Below are positions 50,218-63,861 of a DNA stretch of 64,000 bases, piece by piece. Origin of the DNA: a virus. Each line of letters starts with the position of its first letter. Position 1 is the first letter of the stretch. Made by a program: the position numbers and the translations under genes. The stretch spans positions 32,001 to 96,000 of the IMG/VR virus record IMGVR_UViG_3300023174_006137; one strand, written 5' to 3'. The notes under the pieces are model-generated. The model searched no databases and was not told where the DNA came from. It saw nothing but the letters and a program-made list of their open reading frames with translations.

Positions 50218-52590
50218 TTATCTTGTCCCAGTTCCCCTAACGGCCTGATTAGCATTTTTATTATTACTGACACCACCGCCACCACCAGCTCCGCCAGGAT
50301 TATAAATTCCTGATGGCAATGTTATGTAGTGTAATAATCCGTAAGCATATATTGAACCGTCTTTATTTGTAGAATCAAATAACATTTGACCATTATTTAT
50401 ATTACCATCAGGTGATAATAACCATTTACTATCACTTGTTCTTAAATACATTACTATCTTGCTTCCAACTATTTTACCTGTTCCGCCTTCTTTATTATAG
50501 GCATCAGTAACTTCTTGTAATGTATAAGATTTAACTATTTTAGAAGATACATTTTGTATGGTAAGTGTAGTATCTGTATACCATAAATTGTATGTACCAC
50601 CGGCATAATTAAACGAACTAATAGTTGGTACATTACTTGGTGTTGTTGCTGGTGCTGTTGCTGTGATATTATTTCTTGTTTTTTGATCTTGTGAAGAAAT
50701 TGTATTATTTCTTGTTTTTTGATCTTGTGAAGAAATTGTATTATTTCTCGTTTTCTGGTCTTCAATAGAATTGGTTATTGTGTTATTTAATACATAAGAA
50801 TTTTGCAACATTTCTTTATCTATTGTTGCTACTTTTGCTGGTACAGAAACGAACATTTCATTTTTATCTTTCAAGTCTCTAACATTTAGTTGTACTGGTG
50901 TTGAAGCAGCCGCTATTTGATTAATCGCTGATTGTAACAAATTATTTATATTTGTAACAGAATCATACATATCAAATAACCCAGAATAAATAACAGAAGT
51001 TGAATTTTGTTGTGTGCTGGTTATATAAAATACATTAGTTCCTGAATTCGCTATAGTTCTTAAATTAGAAACAGAAGATGCTGGAATTAAAAATGTTACA
51101 ATTCCTTTTGATATGTCTAAATCTGAATTATTCGTATAAAGCGGAAAATCATATTGTGATTGCGCATTTTTAAAACTAATTTTAATAGTTCCATAAGATG
51201 TTAAATCATATGGTGCCAAATCAGCAGCACTTGCAGATGCTCCACTTGCTCTTGAATTATATAAATTTATTTTAACATATGTGTCAAAAGGTTTAAGGAT
51301 AATCAATAATTTACCTTCTCCATAATATAGTTTTGATCCAGCCACTACATTATCTGATTGTGCAACTACATTTGCAGACTCAACTAATACAGAATATGGA
51401 ATACTCACTGTTTGAACACTTGTTACAGGTGAAACTTGATAATTACTATTACCATTATTATTTCTTGTATTATATATTTTTGGCTTAGTAGCGTTTGATA
51501 AATTAATTTTACTTAAATATCTACTAAATTTAGAAACTTGATTTGGTAACATACCATAAGATGCCTTTCTAACAATTGTAGAATTATCCACAGCATCAAT
51601 TATATTCATTTCAACTTGTATTATAGCTGTTGTGCTTGAATATTTAATTATAGGACGAAATTCAATTGGTGTATTAAAATTATCTGTAACGGTTATTTTT
51701 AAAGAATTTCCCCTTATATTTTGCTCATACATAGTAATTGTGTAAACAACATAATAGCGATTTCCTAAATAAATAGAATTATTAATCCATTCATTAAATC
51801 CAGCAATCGTACCGTCAAATATGCCATAAATTTCAAAGAAATCGCCGTCATCTGCAGGTTGAATTACAACACCTACTTGTTGAAATTCTGGTAATTGTGG
51901 TATATTTGTAAGTAAAGGACCACCTAATTTGTAAGTTTTAATACCATTAATTGTTTGTGAAGTATTAATAAAACTAAATTCAATAAAAATTGGTGTTTGT
52001 TGATTTAAACCTATTCCTTGTGTTAAATTAAAATTAACACTATTTTCTGTTGTTATATTACTTGTTCTTTGATTAGATAAAGCATATACAGAAGGAATAG
52101 AAATAGTTAATTCTTTGCCCCATAAAGTTTCATTATAGATAAAAGGAGGATTTGTGTAGTTTATATAACTTTTGGTATTTACATTAGTTACATCATAAAA
52201 GAAATTACATAAATCATATTGTTTTAAATTATTGAAATCAAATGCATAAACTCTTAAATAAAAGCCTATATTATTTCCAAATGTATAACTAATAGGTAAA
52301 TGTATAATGATAGTATCGTATCTTAAAGGAAATCCAGTTGAATAATTATTAACTTGTAAAAACGAATAATTTGACACATCAGTAATACCATACGTTCTTG
52401 TTATAGAATCTATTGGAAATAAATTATTAGATATAGTATTTAAAGAACCAGAAGTAGTAGATAAAAAAGAATTTTTTGAATCTTTTGTATTAACCAAAAT
52501 TTCATATGGTTCGCTTATCAAATTGGAATCATCGTAAATGTATTCCATTAAGATATTTGCATCAAGATTAACATATTTAGAAAGTCTCAT
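50218..52590 (-). CDS. Large virion structural protein (baseplate/tail-associated), Ser/Thr/Asn-rich
   Basis: 790 aa, beta-rich composition; TATATA box upstream; structural context. Confidence 0.65.
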   Translation of the reverse strand: MRLSKYVNLDANILMEYIYDDSNLISEPYEILVNTKDSKNSFLSTTSGSLNTISNNLFPIDSITRTYGITDVSNYSFLQVNNYSTGFPLRYDTIIIHLPISYTFGNNIGFYLRVYAFDFNNLKQYDLCNFFYDVTNVNTKSYINYTNPPFIYNETLWGKELTISIPSVYALSNQRTSNITTENSVNFNLTQGIGLNQQTPIFIEFSFINTSQTINGIKTYKLGGPLLTNIPQLPEFQQVGVVIQPADDGDFFEIYGIFDGTIAGFNEWINNSIYLGNRYYVVYTITMYEQNIRGNSLKITVTDNFNTPIEFRPIIKYSSTTAIIQVEMNIIDAVDNSTIVRKASYGMLPNQVSKFSRYLSKINLSNATKPKIYNTRNNNGNSNYQVSPVTSVQTVSIPYSVLVESANVVAQSDNVVAGSKLYYGEGKLLIILKPFDTYVKINLYNSRASGASASAADLAPYDLTSYGTIKISFKNAQSQYDFPLYTNNSDLDISKGIVTFLIPASSVSNLRTIANSGTNVFYITSTQQNSTSVIYSGLFDMYDSVTNINNLLQSAINQIAAASTPVQLNVRDLKDKNEMFVSVPAKVATIDKEMLQNSYVLNNTITNSIEDQKTRNNTISSQDQKTRNNTISSQDQKTRNNITATAPATTPSNVPTISSFNYAGGTYNLWYTDTTLTIQNVSSKIVKSYTLQEVTDAYNKEGGTGKIVGSKIVMYLRTSDSKWLLSPDGNINNGQMLFDSTNKDGSIYAYGLLHYITLPSGIYNPGGAGGGGGVSNNKNANQAVRGTGTR
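50667..50774. repeat. 36-bp in-frame tandem repeat (2 identical copies and 1 degenerate)
   Basis: Unit TATTATTTCTTGTTTTTTGATCTTGTGAAGAAATTG encoding TISSQDQKTRNN. Confidence 0.9.
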
Positions 52591-52604
52591 ACATTATATA
52601 TAAA

Positions 52605-52630
52605 AAAATAACCTTTATAAAGGTTATTTT
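52605..52630. terminator. Perfect 26-bp palindrome, probable terminator
   Basis: AAAATAACCTTTATAAAGGTTATTTT. Confidence 0.6.
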
Positions 52631-53006
52631 ATAGTTGTGAATGTAATTCTTTTTTTAATTGCTCATCTGTTTTGCTAGGATATTTTTCCTTTAATGCTTT
52701 ATATAAAATATTTTCTTCTTCACGCAATTTATCTATTTTATCATTTATAGGCTTTACCAAATTAGAGATTTTTTTCTCTTCTAAATCTATTTCTTCTAAT
52801 TTTTTTATTAAATTTTGTGACATTTCAGTTAAATCCGATTTACTTGTAATTTTTACAGATGTTAAACCTTCTAATTCTTTAACCGTATCTTTTAAATATT
52901 TTGATAAATTTTCTAAATCAATTTTATATACCTCTAATTTTTTATTTAGAGATAAAAATTCAGATCTTATATTTCTGGCACTTTCTATAAATTGTTTATC
53001 AATCAT
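52629..53006 (-). CDS. Coiled-coil hypothetical protein
   Basis: 125 aa with heptad pattern; coupled to the upstream gene. Confidence 0.7.
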   Translation of the reverse strand: MIDKQFIESARNIRSEFLSLNKKLEVYKIDLENLSKYLKDTVKELEGLTSVKITSKSDLTEMSQNLIKKLEEIDLEEKKISNLVKPINDKIDKLREEENILYKALKEKYPSKTDEQLKKELHSQL

Positions 53007-54468: not shown

Positions 54469-55196
54469 AATATTATATATTCTAAATTATTTCTTTTAAT
54501 ATCTCTATTAATTTTTGAGCAAAGCGGTTGTAAATTTGAATAATGATTTAATCTTAAAATATCTTCTTCGGTTTTAGCTGTATCTAAAGGTATAATATGA
54601 TCAATGTCTCATCCATAGTTAAATTCACCATTATATAACCCCTTATTTTTCCAATTCATCCAAATTTCAAATTTATTTTCCAAGTATAATTTGAAATCTT
54701 CATATGAACAACCTAAAATTTCATATGTTCTTGATTTTTTTGAAAATCCCTTATTTTTAAAACAAGAATAAATTATGTTTGTAATAGAACACTTTAATTT
54801 AAAAACAGGATCATTTATTTTTCTTAAAGAGGTTAATTTATTTCTCCTATTTTTATAAGTTTTTGCATATTCTTTTTTATATGTTTTTATAATTTCTTTA
54901 TTATCGTGTGCATATTTTTTTTGATAAGCAATTTTTTCCTCTGAATTATTTTCATAATAAATTTTACTTTTATTCTTTATATACTCTTTATTATTTTCAT
55001 AATAAATCGAACTTTTTTCTTTTATAGAATCCAAATTTTTTACATGATAATCCTTTTTATATTCTCTTATTTTATCTTTATTAGAGTTAGCAAATTCTTT
55101 TTGATATTCTATTTTACAAGATTTACATTTGGCATTTCCTTTATAGAACTCTTTAATATCTTTTTCTATTCCGCATTTATTACATAATTTAGTCAT
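54465..55196 (-). pseudogene. HNH homing endonuclease interrupted by an in-frame TGA
   Basis: CNKC...CKSC Zn finger; reading continues NYG*DIDHIIPL...LNHYSNLQPLCSKINRDIK to a stop at 54465; TGA at 54609-54611. Confidence 0.8.
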
Positions 55197-55206
55197 ATAA
55201 TGTATA

Positions 55207-55247
55207 TTAAAAATCCACAAAGAAGTTTTTTCTTTGTGGATTTTTAA
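55207..55247 (-). terminator. 18-bp stem terminator after ssb
   Basis: TTAAAAATCCACAAAGAA-gtttt-TTCTTTGTGGATTTTTAA. Confidence 0.7.
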
Positions 55248-55264
55248 AAATTGTTTTTTGAAGA

Positions 55265-56239
55265 CTAGAAATCTGCGAAGAAATCTTCTGAATCGTCTAC
55301 AACAGTAGCTTTAGGTGCCGGTGATGTTGGTTCTTCAAAATCAAAATCATTTGCTGCAACCGTATTTGCTTTTGCGAAAGAATTAGAAGCTTTACCTGTT
55401 AAGAAATTAGAAATTTCTGTAATTTTAGATTGTTGTTCTTCTGTTAAACGCTTTGGTGAAAAGTCTTCCAAATTATGTTCTCTATTCATTAAAAATTCTT
55501 TTACTGTATTTCTAAATTTAGGATCGATATTACCTTCATTTAAAGGAACATTTTTGAATTTACCAGTTTCAGGGTTGAATAATGGTAATGAAGATGGATT
55601 TGGTTTAAATGCTGAAGAATTATATTCAGGGAAAATTTCTCCATTTGGTCCGCTTACTTCTTTAACTATTAAAGTTAAATCTTTACCTGCGTTCAAATCA
55701 AATACATTACAACTTTCGCCAGTAATATCACCATTTAATTCTGCTTTAATTTTTTCAGAAATTTGTTTTCCATATTGGAAAATCATGATTTTGCCAACTA
55801 ATTCTGGTTGTTGTTCATCTTCAATTACTAAACAATAAGAATAATACTTTTTTGAATACTTCAAACACTTTGCTTTTTCAATAAGCACTGCATTTTTAGA
55901 ATTAACCATTTGATAATAAAGGTCTGTTAAAGGACATTTTTCGCCAGGGAAATTTTTTGCGCTATCAAACCAACCTGATAAATCTTTGTTGTTTTTGATA
56001 TCAACATAATGTGTAATTTTTTCAATTGCTGATTGACCTACACTGCCTTCTTTTGTTAAGTTAGGAAGTAATCTAATTACTGATCTCCAACCTTTCTTTT
56101 TGTCTTTTACTTTTTCAAGGTCTATGCGATAAATACCATCGCTGTTTTTTTCTGCTTTCTCATTAAGAAAGTCAACTTTGTTGTTAATGCCGCCTGCATT
56201 AAATAATGAATCCAATTCGTGTGATGCTTGTGATGCCAT
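55265..56239 (-). CDS. Single-stranded DNA-binding protein (T4 gp32-like)
   Basis: SVIRLLP, KCP, Y.Y.LVI.D...PE..GKI.IF.YG..I..KI, VFD...G.D..L.V, YN.S.F; acidic tail DDSEDFFADF. Confidence 0.85.
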   Translation of the reverse strand: MASQASHELDSLFNAGGINNKVDFLNEKAEKNSDGIYRIDLEKVKDKKKGWRSVIRLLPNLTKEGSVGQSAIEKITHYVDIKNNKDLSGWFDSAKNFPGEKCPLTDLYYQMVNSKNAVLIEKAKCLKYSKKYYSYCLVIEDEQQPELVGKIMIFQYGKQISEKIKAELNGDITGESCNVFDLNAGKDLTLIVKEVSGPNGEIFPEYNSSAFKPNPSSLPLFNPETGKFKNVPLNEGNIDPKFRNTVKEFLMNREHNLEDFSPKRLTEEQQSKITEISNFLTGKASNSFAKANTVAANDFDFEEPTSPAPKATVVDDSEDFFADF

Positions 56240-56291
56240 TTTTTGCCGTTTATTTTTTATTATCAAACATTTTTGTTTGCTTGATTAAGTA

Positions 56292-56318
56292 TTATATGTG
56301 AAAAATTTGTTAAAGTTT
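56292..56318 (-). promoter_or_regulatory. Candidate phage promoter AAAC-N17-ATATAA
   Basis: Upstream of ssb. Confidence 0.4.
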
Positions 56319-56349
56319 AATTTTTAGAAAAAAATTATTTATTCCTTCA

Positions 56350-56390
56350 AAAAAGAAAAAAGCGGATTAATTATCCGCTTTTTTCTTTTT
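56350..56390 (-). terminator. Intrinsic terminator
   Basis: AAAAAGAAAAAAGCGGAT-taatt-ATCCGCTTTTTTCTTTTT. Confidence 0.65.
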
Positions 56391-56735
56391 CTTATTTTTA
56401 TGATGTAAATGTTTTGGTTCATGTGGATAACCATTTTTAGGTTTTACACCAATATATTCTCGAGGTGTTTTTTCTTGATTTTTAAGTGGATTTTTACTAT
56501 CAAAATCAGCATGAAACACTTTATCTGTATCTTTTTCAAAATCTTCATAAGATTCTATTCCAGTATCTATTGGATTTTGAACATAATGTATATTGGCACT
56601 TTTTTTACTCATATCAGCAATTCTGTCACCAATATCAATTCCTTTTGTTAATTTTCTCAATTTTTTTAACTGATCCACCGAACTTTTTCTTGGTAAAGAT
56701 TCAGTAATAAATTCTTCATAATTATAAATTTTCAT
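56367..56735 (-). CDS. Basic protein with capsid-targeting-like N-terminus (candidate internal head protein)
   Basis: MKIYNYEEFITE start; His/Lys-rich tail. Confidence 0.7.
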   Translation of the reverse strand: MKIYNYEEFITESLPRKSSVDQLKKLRKLTKGIDIGDRIADMSKKSANIHYVQNPIDTGIESYEDFEKDTDKVFHADFDSKNPLKNQEKTPREYIGVKPKNGYPHEPKHLHHKNKKKKKADN

Positions 56736-56920
56736 ATAATTTCTTTTTGTTTTATTGAATTACAGACGTTTTACGCTACTTTTGAAGCAAATGCTTAGAG
56801 AGTTATTAGATTAGTAATTCAAGCTAAATTCAAGCAAATTAAACATAATTACAAACGATTTCAAAAGTAATTTCAAAGCTGTCAAGAATATATATTATTT
56901 TTATAAATCAATTTAAAAGC

Positions 56921-56960
56921 AAATAAAAAAAACCACTCAATTGAGTGGTTTTTTTTATTT
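56921..56960. terminator. Perfect 40-bp palindrome, terminator after clpC
   Basis: AAATAAAAAAAACCACTCAA|TTGAGTGGTTTTTTTTATTT. Confidence 0.75.
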
Positions 56961-59157
56961 ATTCTTCAGATTTTTTCTTTCTGGTTTTCTTTGGCTTTTC
57001 AACTTCAATTTCCATTTCAGAGCCATTTAATTGTGTATCTTCAGCTTTTACTTCTGATTCTGGTTTTGGTTCTGGATTTATTGCTGATATACCAGTTATT
57101 TCATTATCAGAATCATAAGTTAAATCTAATTGGGTTCCTTCAATTGGACTATTCTCCAAAATATAATCTGTTAAATAATCATCTACCCATCTTTGAATTG
57201 CTCTTTTCATCGGACGTGCACCATATTGAGGGTCATAACCAACAACCGAAAGATGTTCTTTCAATTTTTCGTCAATAGTTATTTTATAACCAATTTCGCC
57301 TGCTCTTTTTACACTTTTTACTAATTCAAGATCAATAATAGAATAAATATCTTCTTTACTTAAATCTTTAAAGTAGATAATATCATCAATACGGTTGATA
57401 AATTCTGGTGGAAATTTCTTTTTAAGTTCTTTCTCTAATTTATCTTTGATATTATCAGATTTTTTAGCTTCTTTAGCTTTTGTTGAAAATCCAACACCTG
57501 TTCCAAATTCTTTAACTTCTTTTGTTCCAACATTGGATGTCATTAGAATTACCGTGTTTTTGAAACTTACTTTTCTACCGTGTGAATCAGTCATATAACC
57601 GTCATCAAAAACTTGTAAGAAAAGATTATAAATATCTGGATGTGCTTTTTCTATTTCATCTAAAAGAATTACAGAATATGGTTTAGTTCTAACTTTATTT
57701 AGAAGTTCTGAACCTTCATCATAACCAACATAACCAGGAGCGGCACCACTAATACGAGAAGCAGCAATTTTTTCCATATATTCACTCATATCTAATCTAA
57801 TTAAAGAATCTTCTGAATCAAACATATATTTTGCTAACTGCTTAGCCATTTCTGTTTTACCAACACCAGAATTACCAATTAACATACCAACAAAAATAGG
57901 TTTATTTGGGTCGGCAAGTCCGATTCGGCTACGTTGAATTGAACGAACTACTTTATTTACTGCATCGTCTTGACCAATAACTTTTCCCTTAAGTTCAGGT
58001 GACATCTTTGACAACTTAGAATTTTCGTTTGTAGTTATTTTTTGTAATGGAATGCCTGTCATCATAGACACAACTTGTGCTACATTTTCTTCTGTAACCA
58101 TTTGTCTATGTTTTTTCTGCTCATTTTCCCAACTAATTCTTGCTTTTTCTAAAGCATCATTCAATTGTCTTTCTTTATCACGAAGTTTAGCTGCATCTTC
58201 ATATCGTTGACTTTTAACAACCGATTGTTTTTCTTCTTTAACTTTCGCAATTTCATTCTCTACATCAATAATTTCTTTTGGAACATTAATATTAGAAATA
58301 TGAACATGAGAACCAGCTTCATCTAAAGCATCAATTGCTTTATCGGGAAGAAATCTATCTTGGACATAACGAGCCGTTAGTGTAACACATGCTTTTAATG
58401 CTTCTGGGGTAAATCTAACCGAATGGTGATTCTCATAATTTTCTTTAATATTATTAAGAATTTGTAAAGTTTCTTCTTCGGTTGCAGGTTCAACTAGAAC
58501 TTTTTGAAATCTTCTTTCTAAAGCACCATCTTTTTCAATATGCTTACGATATTCATCCAAAGTTGTAGCACCTATAATTTGCAATTCACCTCTTGATAAA
58601 GCTGGTTTGAACATATTTGAAGCGTCCAAAGAACCTGAAGCTCCACCTGCACCTATCATTGTATGTATTTCATCAATAAATAGAATGATATTAGGTTCTT
58701 TCTCCAATTCAGCCATAAGTGCTTTAATTCTTTCTTCAAATTGTCCACGATATTTTGTACCAGCAACCATAGAAGCTAAATCAAGTGTTACGATTCTTTT
58801 ATTAAAAAGAACACGACTAACTTTCCTTTGAATAATTCGTAATGCTAAACCTTCGGCAATAGAAGATTTACCAACACCTGGTTCGCCAATTAAAATTGGA
58901 TTATTTTTCTTTCTTCTAGATAGAATTTGAGATACACGCAAAATTTCTTTTTCACGACCTACAATTGGGTCGATCTTTCCTTCTTCAGCCATTTTAGTAA
59001 GGTCTTTACTAAAAGAGTCTAAAACAGGTGTTTTTGATGTTTTGTCACCCTTTTTGTTTGGTCTTGAAAATTTACTATCTTCGTCATCATCATAGTCATC
59101 CAAAGCAGCCACAATTTTCACCTCTTTAATCGATTCAATGTTGTGTTTTTTATTCAT
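56959..59157 (-). CDS. clpC: ClpC-type AAA+ unfoldase lacking the N-terminal Clp-repeat domain
   Basis: GEPGVGKS/FIDEIH, DKAIDALDEAG, UVR M-domain YEDAAKLRD, GNSGVGKT/LLDEIEKAH, VGF ClpP loop, YGARP. Confidence 0.93.
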   Translation of the reverse strand: MNKKHNIESIKEVKIVAALDDYDDDEDSKFSRPNKKGDKTSKTPVLDSFSKDLTKMAEEGKIDPIVGREKEILRVSQILSRRKKNNPILIGEPGVGKSSIAEGLALRIIQRKVSRVLFNKRIVTLDLASMVAGTKYRGQFEERIKALMAELEKEPNIILFIDEIHTMIGAGGASGSLDASNMFKPALSRGELQIIGATTLDEYRKHIEKDGALERRFQKVLVEPATEEETLQILNNIKENYENHHSVRFTPEALKACVTLTARYVQDRFLPDKAIDALDEAGSHVHISNINVPKEIIDVENEIAKVKEEKQSVVKSQRYEDAAKLRDKERQLNDALEKARISWENEQKKHRQMVTEENVAQVVSMMTGIPLQKITTNENSKLSKMSPELKGKVIGQDDAVNKVVRSIQRSRIGLADPNKPIFVGMLIGNSGVGKTEMAKQLAKYMFDSEDSLIRLDMSEYMEKIAASRISGAAPGYVGYDEGSELLNKVRTKPYSVILLDEIEKAHPDIYNLFLQVFDDGYMTDSHGRKVSFKNTVILMTSNVGTKEVKEFGTGVGFSTKAKEAKKSDNIKDKLEKELKKKFPPEFINRIDDIIYFKDLSKEDIYSIIDLELVKSVKRAGEIGYKITIDEKLKEHLSVVGYDPQYGARPMKRAIQRWVDDYLTDYILENSPIEGTQLDLTYDSDNEITGISAINPEPKPESEVKAEDTQLNGSEMEIEVEKPKKTRKKKSEE

Positions 59158-59822: not shown

Positions 59823-60113
59823 TTAAGCATTTTCAGTTTCACCATTTACAGATGCTTGTAAAGAACTACCTGGTTTAAATTTAGCTACTTTTTTAGCTGG
59901 GATAAGAATTTCAGCACCATTTTTAGGATTACGTCCTTTTCTTTCAGCTCTTTGTGCAGTTTGGAATGTACCAAAACCTACTAAAGTTACTTTATCACCT
60001 GCGTTTAAAGCTTCTTTTACTGCTTCTACTACTGCATCAATAACTTCTGATGTCTTTGTTTTTGTTAAATCCACTTTTGTGGAAACTACGTTGATTAAAT
60101 CTGCTTTGTTCAT
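59823..60113 (-). CDS. hup: HU family DNA-binding protein
   Basis: MNKADLI...LVGFGTF...RAERKGRNPKNG.EI.IPAK.V.KFKPG. Confidence 0.95.
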   Translation of the reverse strand: MNKADLINVVSTKVDLTKTKTSEVIDAVVEAVKEALNAGDKVTLVGFGTFQTAQRAERKGRNPKNGAEILIPAKKVAKFKPGSSLQASVNGETENA

Positions 60114-60133
60114 ACGATTTATTTTTTTTTAAT

Positions 60134-60159
60134 TTATATTCAACTAAATTGAAAGGTTT
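60134..60159 (-). promoter_or_regulatory. Candidate phage promoter AAAC-N16-ATATAA
   Basis: Upstream of HU. Confidence 0.4.
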
Positions 60160-60309
60160 TAAATTTTTTAATTTTTTTTCTGTTTAATTCTTTGTCTTTA
60201 AACCACTTTCGTATTTATTTGATACATATTGTAATCGATTTTGTTATAAAAGTTTAAATTTTTGTAAAAAATTTTATGAAAATTCATGATTAAAAAGGTT
60301 TTTAGCTAT

Positions 60310-60660
60310 AAGCCGCTATTGATGCTAATTTAGACAATAGCGGCTTTTAACACATAACTCGTGGCGAAATAAGGATTTATACTTAAATTCGCCATTCACG
60401 CCTTCCTGGTCAAAGCATTAGATTTTATATGTTTTTTCCTCTCTTCAAAAAACATCGTCTGTCTTACCAGACAAAAAATATCACAAGGAGCTGAACTGTC
60501 GACTAAAATTGTTCATCCCATACCAATTAACCTTGTGGGAGCCGTAACTAAGCTAATAACGGCATCATAGCTTGATGTTTCCAGGACATCTAGATTGCAG
60601 AACTTGTTCTTTAATAACCTTTAAGTTAAGAAACTACGACTTCTACAATCGTTTCAATTT
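60310..60660 (-). ncRNA. Candidate large structured ncRNA (~350 nt, multiple helices and pseudoknots), class unknown
   Basis: No ORF of 60 aa or more; locally GC-enriched; own TTTG-N19-TACATTTG promoter; about 10 complementary segment pairs; 12-bp 3' hairpin. Confidence 0.7.
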
Positions 60661-60665
60661 CGTTA

Positions 60666-60696
60666 CAAATGTATGAAAGTTTTGTTAAAAAACAAA
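60666..60696 (-). promoter_or_regulatory. Bacteroidota-type promoter TTTG-N19-TACATTTG driving the candidate ncRNA
   Basis: Full consensus with no CDS for ~550 nt downstream; overlaps the hairpin after folA. Confidence 0.7.
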
Positions 60697-60702
60697 ACTT
60701 TT

Positions 60703-61173
60703 TCATAATTTTTTAAATGTTATATACGAATAATCAAATTCAGGACATGATAAATCAACTTTATTTTCAATATTAAAGTATTCATCAGGTATTTCCGGAA
60801 AATATGCGTCACCTTCAAAATCTTTATCAATTAAAGTTAATTCAATTGCATCAGCATATCCAAGAGTTTGCTTATAAATTTCTGCACCACCTATTACAAA
60901 TAAATCGGTTGTGCGATATATTTCAAGTGCTTCTTCTAAAGAATTATAAACAAAACAACCTTCTTGATGAAAGTTTCTATCTCTGGTTATAATTATATTT
61001 CGTCTATTTGGAAGTGGTTTTCCAATTGATTCAAAAGTTTTTCTACCCATCAAAACATTATGTCCAGATGTTAATTCTTTAAATCTTTTTAAGTCGCCTG
61101 GTACATGCCAGATTAGTTGATTGTCTTTTCCAATAACACGATTATTGGAACAAGCTGCTATTAATGTTATCAT
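60703..61173 (-). CDS. folA: Dihydrofolate reductase
   Basis: IAA...VIG..NQL.W..P.DL..FK..T, MGRKTFESI..PLP.R.N, VIGGAEIY and GDAYFP motifs. Confidence 0.96.
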   Translation of the reverse strand: MITLIAACSNNRVIGKDNQLIWHVPGDLKRFKELTSGHNVLMGRKTFESIGKPLPNRRNIIITRDRNFHQEGCFVYNSLEEALEIYRTTDLFVIGGAEIYKQTLGYADAIELTLIDKDFEGDAYFPEIPDEYFNIENKVDLSCPEFDYSYITFKKL

Positions 61174-63278: not shown

Positions 63279-63815
63279 ATGAATATAAACTTAGAACAAG
63301 ATTGGCTTAGATTTGATAGTGCTTCATCTTTAACAGCATCATATTATGGTTATAATACAAATGTTGGAGCAGCTGATTCTTCAAATACCTGGTCAATAAG
63401 ACAAGTTGTTGGAACTAATTCAATGACTGTTACATGGAACAATAATATTCCACTTGCTTATGAAGCATCTTGGACTAACCGTGCTTATTATTTTGCTACA
63501 CCTTCAAATATATCTATTACTGGAACAGCAACAACATATGGTTCTGCTTATAATGTAACTTTTACATGGACAACTTCAACTGGTTCTTCAAGATATTATG
63601 TGAATTTTACAAGAAATAATACCACAATTTACAATACATTAGATGCGGGTGGCGATCAATTTAATCCATATCAAAATTCTCCGACTAAAGTTTATATAAA
63701 TACTAATTCAGCAACATTAGTAAATTGCCCACCTGGGTATACTTATTCGGCAAGTATTTATGCTGCTAATGGTGTAGGTGTTAGTTCAACTACTAGTTCT
63801 TCTGTTAGATTATAA
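63279..63815 (+). CDS. Ser/Thr-rich beta protein, probable virion decoration/fibre protein with FN3-like C-terminus
   Basis: VTFTW....G...YYV...L.NCPPG.TY.A.IYA.N..G FN3 pattern; TAATATATAA at 63253-63262. Confidence 0.7.
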   Translation: MNINLEQDWLRFDSASSLTASYYGYNTNVGAADSSNTWSIRQVVGTNSMTVTWNNNIPLAYEASWTNRAYYFATPSNISITGTATTYGSAYNVTFTWTTSTGSSRYYVNFTRNNTTIYNTLDAGGDQFNPYQNSPTKVYINTNSATLVNCPPGYTYSASIYAANGVGVSSTTSSSVRL

Positions 63816-63861
63816 AAAATTTAAAAGCCGCTAAATTTAGCGGCTTTTAAATTTTTTATAA
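63810..63861. terminator. Perfect 52-bp palindrome, bidirectional terminator between convergent genes
   Basis: TTATAAAAAATTTAAAAGCCGCTAAA|TTTAGCGGCTTTTAAATTTTTTATAA. Confidence 0.8.

Follow-up and report, generated by a model that had tools for sequence, protein, structure and literature searches.

The 64,000-nt stretch analyzed here (the window) comprises bases 32001-96000 of the IMG/VR virus record IMGVR_UViG_3300023174_006137, a 159-kb record with a CheckV completeness of 22%, a G+C content of 26% and 39 tRNA genes predicted by ARAGORN. Two of its minus-strand genes, folA (60703-61173) and HU (59823-60113), are separated by 589 nt. By a crude call of open reading frames (ORFs), this is the biggest ORF-free gap of the window, and its core is richer in G+C (35-41% at 60300-60600) than the flanks (17-26%) or the genome (26%), both as an initial sequence-only reading of the stretch had noted. 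According to our analysis, the gap holds an RNA gene, non-coding and highly structured, whose versions of ~335-390 nt occur in a small set of freshwater phages of very large size, related to each other and using Bacteroidota-type promoters. The RNA represents a new, previously undescribed family among the ornate phage RNAs, and its gene is an accessory one rather than part of the core functions. We put the probability of this explanation as a whole at about 0.8. Unless indicated otherwise, the coordinates below refer to the window and the features lie on its minus strand.

Homologues of the element were invisible to all nucleotide searches and were reached only via the conserved neighboring protein HU, which may be a useful lesson for the search of such RNAs. 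The contigs encoding the 11 members of the 90%-identity cluster of the HU protein were fetched, giving 20 loci, and the regions upstream of HU were compared by blastn. In this way, the element was found in six lineages from independent assemblies, 71–96% identical in the RNA: L243 (96% identity to the window element), L253, L254 and L255 (83%), L249 and L250 (~72%), L260 and L261 (~74%), L245 and L246 (~71%, with the L246 lineage later extended by L271 and L272), and L256 (81%, core only). In all these loci, the element is found a short way upstream of HU, and the full-length versions share one layout, namely the folA stop, a promoter-like motif, an RNA of 335–390 nt, a terminator hairpin and the conserved region upstream of HU. 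Public sequencing runs also contained a near-identical element in other freshwater and wastewater samples.

Other routes were unproductive. No homologue was revealed by blastn of the element (in the window version and in the version that we call type 2) against GenBank phages, by scanning IMG/VR and JGI metagenomes for exact matches to a 21-mer and a 23-mer, or by the single-sequence covariance models R1 and R2; a conserved 18-mer had one chance match in IMG/VR, within a coding region (L263). None of the loci collected from IMG/VR and metagenomes by means of folA and HU carried the element, it was not found in five related viral records, and 401 Bacteroidota genomes gave just scattered matches of 20–40 nt. 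The family model R3 retrieved only the known members, with nothing more in the related records or in the phage genomes LR756502.1 and LR745206.1.

The element also matched no known RNA family. Rfam 15, whose families include ROOL, GOLLD, OLE, raiA, HEARO, 6S, RNase P, SRP, tmRNA, group I/II introns, THF/ZTP and other riboswitches, gave no match at gathering scores anywhere in the window; in the gap, only noise appeared at E-values up to 10 (best score, 22 bits vs. a cut-off of 48.7), and five homologue loci produced only spurious microRNA-hairpin matches on a terminator. ARAGORN detected neither tRNA nor tmRNA in the window and no tmRNA in the whole record, none of whose 39 tRNAs lies near the element. 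These results bear out the sequence-only reading, which had proposed a novel RNA other than tmRNA, RNase P, SRP or a group I/II intron.

The gene is patchily distributed among close relatives. In L045, the nearest IMG/VR relative (ClpC 86%, HU 93% and folA 66% identical), the folA-HU gap has 332 nt, with folA directly upstream, and contains no homologue of the element. The corresponding gap of L070 (HU 75% identical) is merely 160 nt long and lacks the RNA, and L247, with the same HU as L245, has a different upstream gene and no RNA. In L258 (Logan contig 324-591, HU 99% identical), the segment equivalent to window 60658-60324 is cleanly missing, so that the promoter is joined to the terminator’s 3′ arm; this means either that the phage can do without the RNA or that the contig comes from a deletion mutant. 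Because it is absent from L045, L070, L247 and L258, we consider the RNA an accessory gene. The distance from its last hairpin to the conserved block upstream of HU equals that of the folA terminator in L045, and since the hairpin thus lies where L045 has its folA terminator, the RNA body was apparently inserted between folA and that terminator. At the element, no terminal inverted repeats or target duplications were found as signs of a mobile element, only promoter-like direct repeats. In L069 (1-267; HU 85% identical), the end of another ORF, with neither folA nor the RNA, precedes the conserved HU leader. Judging from these arrangements, the region ahead of HU appears to be a hot spot for gene exchange. 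The phage DHFR itself occurs in two forms, of 156 aa (window 60703-61173 and the L253 lineage) and of 178–179 aa with a C-terminal extension; the loci compared with the window for this length were L045 (2132-2668), L245 (90-629) and L256 (403-942).

All pairings listed by the sequence-only reading were located where it had placed them, and most of them belong to a fold shared by the family. The 5′ hairpin (GAUUGUAGAA/UUCUGCAAUC with an inner stem, 60593-60650) is highly stable (z = -4.7, with 0 of 200 shuffles as stable), but it is confined to the group of the window, L243 and L253, while the other lineages carry different 5′ hairpins; its proposed place in the fold therefore does not extend to the family. 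The next hairpin, Hb (GAUGU/ACAUC with the loop CCUGGAA, 60574-60590), has changed on both sides at five of its six stem positions, appearing as GUGUGU/ACACAC, GCGUGU/ACACGC or GUGCGA/UCGCAU in other lineages, and its loop sequence CUGG is present in all lineages whose contigs cover the loop (5/6). It is followed by an H-type pseudoknot (60541-60573) with the stems S1, AAGCUA (60573-60568)/UAGCUU (60555-60550), and S2, GCCGU (60563-60559)/ACGGC (60545-60541). Its dimensions are those of this type, with 6 bp in S1, 5–6 bp in S2 and loops of 3–4, 3 and 4–6 nt. The last pair of S1 is A-U or U-A among lineages. The proposed pseudoknot is supported by S2, which elsewhere reads GGAAUC/GGUUCC, GGAACC/GGUUCU, GAGUGGU/ACUGCUC and others, that is, unrelated sequences that nevertheless pair throughout.

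The conserved core (60482-60537) consists of helix P3 (CACAAGG, 60537-60531, with CCUUGUG, 60488-60482), a near-invariant 11-nt bulge (UUAAUUGGUAU, UUAAUUGKUAU, 60530-60520), helix P4 (60518-60511 with 60496-60489) and a P4 loop of 14 nt that includes CAAUUU and the palindrome GUCGAC (60503-60498). P3 and P4 were found by RNAalifold without guidance. The second pseudoknot or switch that had been suggested for this region stood in part: CACAAGG/CCUUGUG and the enclosed hairpin covary, whereas the UCCCA/UGGGA pairing is compatible with all lineages and shows one-sided changes only; it could, but need not, represent an alternative fold. A possible second pseudoknot of the core, between AAUUG of the bulge and CAAUU of the P4 loop, is invariant. 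A closing helix, AUGAC/GUCAU, forms well in four lineages and weakly in the window, and L256 does not have it. The palindrome of the P4 loop is changed to GCCGGC in the L250 and L245 lineages.

Downstream of the core lies the hairpin P5 (UUGUCUG/CAGACGA, 60455-60474), which enters the covariation counts. Its hexaloop GUAAGA is the same in five of the six lineages, with a 1-nt change in L253, and CUGGUAAGA is invariant in all. The hairpin P6 (AUGUUUUUU/AAAAAACAU, 60429-60455) is built on the U-run that follows P5; its outer three pairs and pair 7 have changed on both sides, giving the variants CUA/UAG, UGG/CUA, CGA/UCG and AGGUUUC/GAAACCU, and P5 and P6 jointly have a folding z of -3.3. The linker AAAUCUA (60425-60419) leads to P7 (linker and hairpin 60398-60425), a hairpin of AUGCUUU/AAGGCGU with the loop GACCAGG, whose register slips between lineages and which has one mismatch in L245. 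The CCAGG of this loop (60409-60405), with its invariant CCAG, pairs with the Hb loop. The long-range contact postulated from the sequence is thus upheld, with four invariant CUGG/CCAG pairs and a fifth pair that is C-G in the window, U.G in L245 and U-A in L260 and L256. P8 (UGGCGAA/UUCGCCA with the inner stem UAAG/CUUA, 60362-60394) has four positions changed on both sides, and in one contig of a metagenome strain variant its C-G pair at 60391/60365 is replaced by U-A, the state also seen in L243 and L253. The three helices that the sequence-only reading had listed in this part, P5, P6 and P8, all covary across lineages.

The comparison across the six lineages, rather than the fold of a single sequence, was the decisive evidence. 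In an unguided MAFFT alignment, RNAalifold recovered P3, P4, P5 and the terminator, with nine pairs changed on both sides. Within the core helices P3, P4 and P5, 92.1% of cells were paired, against 86.5% in shuffled alignments (0 of 500 as high); six pairs had changed on both sides (a result of 2 of 500 shuffles), the covariation score was 0.240 vs. 0.140 (0 of 500 shuffles as high), and sliding the partners by 1–3 columns reduced pairing to 37–55%. Because this alignment shifted the register of S1/S2, P6, P7 and P8 from one lineage group to the other, these helices were tallied by anchor-based extraction. Our tally covered ten helices or loop-loop contacts and the loop palindrome (76 paired positions, with registers taken from conserved anchors). 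Standard pairs made up 97.9% of 419 cells; 31 positions had two-sided changes, 12 had one-sided changes and 33 were constant. At variable positions, 96.1% paired with their own strand and 47.3% with the strand from another lineage, and the best-stem scores of own strands exceeded those of foreign strands in Hb, S2, P3, P6 and P8. Among the five type-2 rows alone, Hb, S1 and S2 were 97.4% paired (16–49% when slid), and S2 was fully paired (100%) and had two-sided changes in two of its pairs; the S2 of the window group (GCCGU/ACGGC) is unrelated to that of type 2 and pairs too. Compensatory changes thus preserve the base pairs of the homologues, as is required of a structured non-coding RNA family, and we consider it very probable that the element is a real, selected, structured RNA gene.

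The same alignments identify the strand. The helix cells contain 42 G.U and 6 A.C combinations, and standard pairs amount to 97.7% on the minus strand and 88.7% on the other; the excess of G.U over A.C marks the minus strand as the RNA strand. This bears on the possibility that the feature acts as DNA (for example, as a signal for replication or packaging, or as a palindrome bound by a protein) or that the region encodes a small protein. Such a reading would account for both strands folding equally well by z-score and for GUCGAC and GCCGGC being palindromic as DNA too, and four of the six lineages share a small ORF starting MNN. However, a sevenfold excess of G.U over A.C is meaningful only for a minus-strand RNA. 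The start codon of this ORF, the only recurring one, has disappeared from L253 and L260, and a frameshift separates its L249 and L250 versions, so that, in line with the sequence-only reading, no conserved small ORF explains the region. A function as DNA or as a protein-coding gene is accordingly extremely unlikely. No ORF of more than 21 codons exists on the minus strand of the element. Two coding candidates were considered and rejected: a 21-codon ORF with an AGGAAGG motif, in which a strain variant changes AUG to UUG, A2V and A11T, and a read-through product with TGA as Trp, for which neither a Pfam or PHROG family nor a relative was found.

Folding of the window sequence alone, scored against dinucleotide shuffles, was suggestive only. 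The whole element has a z of -5.2, but without the last hairpin, from which much of the signal comes, only -2.9; the opposite strand reaches -5.5, equal to the RNA strand, and nested folds of the central pseudoknot region give -0.3. The H-type pseudoknot is the best in its region, yet 13 of 300 shuffles match it. Elsewhere on the minus strand of the window, 200-nt folding z-scores between -4 and -6 occur at 56201-56500, 56901-57100, 55101-55400 and 52501-52700; some of these strongly folding windows may be terminators or further structured elements.

Upstream of the RNA, the Bacteroidota promoter reported from the sequence is indeed present (60666-60696), with a -33 TTTG (60696-60693), a 19-nt spacer and the -7 box TACATTTG (60673-60666). 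An 11-bp A/U-rich hairpin (60701-60676), which begins directly after the folA stop codon, overlaps this promoter. The motif TTTG-N17-21-TAnnTTTG is enriched in the window, with 15 occurrences against 6.6 ± 2.5 expected (15 were reached in 0 of 100 shuffles), and genome-wide the same promoter family, with a central CAAAACTTT, precedes many genes and all tRNA arrays. The enrichment is consistent with the host predicted for relatives of this size. The ClpC-like protein of the record is 68% identical to those of the uncultured phages LR756502.1 and LR745206.1 (642 and 635 kb), and phages of the 635–642 kb size class have been assigned to the “Mahaphage” clade with predicted Bacteroidetes hosts (PMC7162821). 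A promoter-like motif also stands upstream of the RNA in L253, L245/L271, L260 and L256, of the form TTTG-N19/20-TAnnTTTG with one mismatch each in L245 and L256.

Two side observations concern this promoter family. An extended form, TTTG..CAAAACTTTT..TAnnTTTG, is common in the phage (window 59700-59730, 62581-62611 and other sites), and several such promoters lie only 4–6 nt before an ATG (59700 with ATG 59694; 62581 with ATG 62576), which implies leaderless or near-leaderless mRNAs. The 39 tRNA genes form clusters on the minus strand past the end of the window (G000 bases 106966-139515), each preceded by the same type of promoter and by leaders ending in strong terminators, with 11–13 bp followed by at least seven U.

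The position of the promoter motif also allows the weighing of a second alternative, in which the element would be merely a structured 3′ untranslated region (UTR) of folA, for example an mRNA stabilizer, and the promoter match would be coincidental. No U-tract terminator stands between the folA stop and the element, and the coincidence of the last hairpin with the folA terminator of L045 agrees with this view. In contrast, the motif belongs to the phage’s own promoter family and has stayed in place throughout the full-length lineages despite the divergence of the sequence around it, and the conservation together with three tertiary contacts far exceeds what a stabilizing hairpin needs. We therefore regard a mere folA 3′ UTR as very unlikely.

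At the other end, the final 12-bp hairpin (60310-60346; z = -5.7) lies where the sequence-only reading had put it and represents a terminator. It covaries, and in four lineages (L249/L250, L245, L260 and L256) a U-rich tail follows it, while the window lineage has UUAUAGCU in place of the U-tract. Its arm AAAAGCCGCUA recurs in a long perfect palindromic hairpin between convergent genes at 63815-63850 (AAAAGCCGCUAAA/UUUAGCGGCUUUU with A/U extensions; z ~ -13.9 in a 200-nt window), which is probably a two-way terminator. As placed by promoter and terminator, the RNA is predicted to span 60300-60661 (~355–365 nt), starting a few bases past the -7 box and ending just past the terminator; its homologues have 335–390 nt between the same landmarks. 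Judged from sequence, the element is thus bounded by a promoter of the genome’s own type and an intrinsic terminator, as is an independent bacterial-type transcription unit.

The constant position of the RNA directly upstream of HU raises a third alternative, a cis-acting HU leader (attenuator or riboswitch) in which stopping or read-through at P5 and its U-run, or at the last hairpin, would set the HU level. P5 with the following U-run resembles a weak terminator, and the last hairpin of the window lineage lacks a U-tract. However, this U-run forms the 5′ side of P6, a helix that covaries, no riboswitch family was matched, and strong U-tract terminators part the RNA from HU in four lineages. 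Furthermore, HU has its own upstream region, where the sequence-only reading had seen a promoter-like motif: a conserved stretch of 170 nt is kept both with the RNA and in the RNA-less L045, L070, L247 and L258. For these reasons the RNA does not appear to be a leader of HU, and we consider this alternative unlikely. The 170 nt ahead of HU (window 60114-60290; L045 2830-3000; L070 420-580) contain the blocks TAAACTTTT, ATATATCAAAT and AAACCTTTCAATTTAGTTGAATATAAAT, kept in all relatives, the last of which includes the inverted repeat TTCAA..TTGAA; from their sequence, these blocks could be a non-canonical promoter or operator for HU. Overall, the kept promoter motif, the terminator, the separate upstream region of HU and the covarying fold support the original proposal of a stand-alone RNA gene.

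Several observations weigh against this explanation or narrow it. The family is narrow, and as some of its six lineages are close relatives, the covariation counts in part record the same history repeatedly. A best-complement search within homologous windows, which favors pairing, served to place several helices; the swap controls reduce this bias but keep some of it. Four of the five pairs of the Hb-P7 contact never vary, and the switch of the palindrome is a single evolutionary event in a loop with other changes. As no terminator stands between folA and the RNA, the latter is also part of the folA 3′ UTR, and without a U-tract in the window lineage, some read-through into HU is possible. The reads of the RNA sequencing runs X19 and X20 lie solely over the conserved HU piece, probably derive from other organisms and are uninformative on the element.

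Among known RNAs, ROOL and GOLLD are the closest in concept, and in this respect the analogy drawn by the sequence-only reading holds. Like the element, they are phage-encoded, large for bacterial non-coding RNAs, equipped with several pseudoknots and kissing loops and made of conserved and variable parts; neither has a known function or protein partner. The analogy does not extend to homology, since the element matches neither covariance model even at E = 10, is shorter (335–390 nt against ~580 and >800), adjoins HU instead of tRNA islands (the nearest tRNA is >14 kb away) and has a very narrow distribution. ROOL and GOLLD are homo-oligomers assembled through kissing loops (PMC12286853), and by analogy the palindromic P4 loop could mediate a similar oligomerization. 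In OLE and GOLLD, a change from one palindrome to another has been read as evidence for symmetric kissing loops between molecules (PMC12286853). The P4 loop also resembles loop L9.3 of OLE and the HIV-1 dimerization initiation site in presenting a six-base self-complementary sequence in a purine-flanked hairpin loop; here, by comparison, one switch event only (GUCGAC to GCCGGC) is known.

Two other kinds of RNA invite comparison. The phi29 pRNA is a phage RNA with its own promoter that forms rings via loop-loop pairing between copies; it has ~120–174 nt and belongs to the packaging motor of small podoviruses. In principle, the CUGG/CCAG contact could likewise join two molecules, but the element has no sequence or structure similarity to pRNA and no link to packaging genes. 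Small RNAs (sRNAs) transcribed from their own promoters in 3′ UTRs are short and act by base pairing. The element resembles these sRNAs and phage “moron” cassettes in being a promoter-RNA-terminator unit between two genes, with a terminator position common with the upstream gene and a patchy presence in close relatives. It differs from the 3′-UTR sRNAs in that its complementarity to the phage’s own genome is not enriched (30 12-mers vs. 35 expected).

This lack of enriched complementarity, together with the compact fold locked by tertiary contacts, suggests a trans-acting particle, and we lean slightly towards an RNA that acts in trans, as RNA or as an RNA-protein particle. In this proposal, the RNA would work as a compact folded particle, neither a leader nor an antisense regulator, and its contact surfaces would be the invariant single-stranded bulge UUAAUUGKUAU, the loop GUAAGA, the linker AAAUCUA and the palindromic loop. 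Two copies of the RNA might pair through their palindromic P4 loops and so form a dimer or a larger assembly, possibly with a protein partner. Since adjacent bases within one loop cannot pair with each other, the palindrome-to-palindrome change hints at pairing between molecules; even so, self-association through the palindrome appears to us possible but doubtful. The RNA may have an accessory role in host takeover or counter-defence, as suggested by the close relatives that do without it.

In its boldest form, the proposal would place the element in a new class of self-assembling RNAs from huge Bacteroidota phages, forming a dimer or a larger RNA-only or RNA-protein particle via the P4 palindrome, and perhaps via CUGG/CCAG pairing between copies. 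Such an RNA would be an early device of host takeover or counter-defence and a smaller, unrelated counterpart of the ROOL/GOLLD nanocages; we offer this as a speculation with an outside chance of being right.

In conclusion, large structured RNAs of unknown function are rare, every new class so far has brought unexpected RNA biology, and the RNA described here was found in the largest known kind of phage. Its size suits in-vitro transcription, chemical probing and cryo-electron microscopy without a cultured host. The palindromic loop represents a clear, testable feature, and the natural variants with and without the gene allow direct comparison of these phages.
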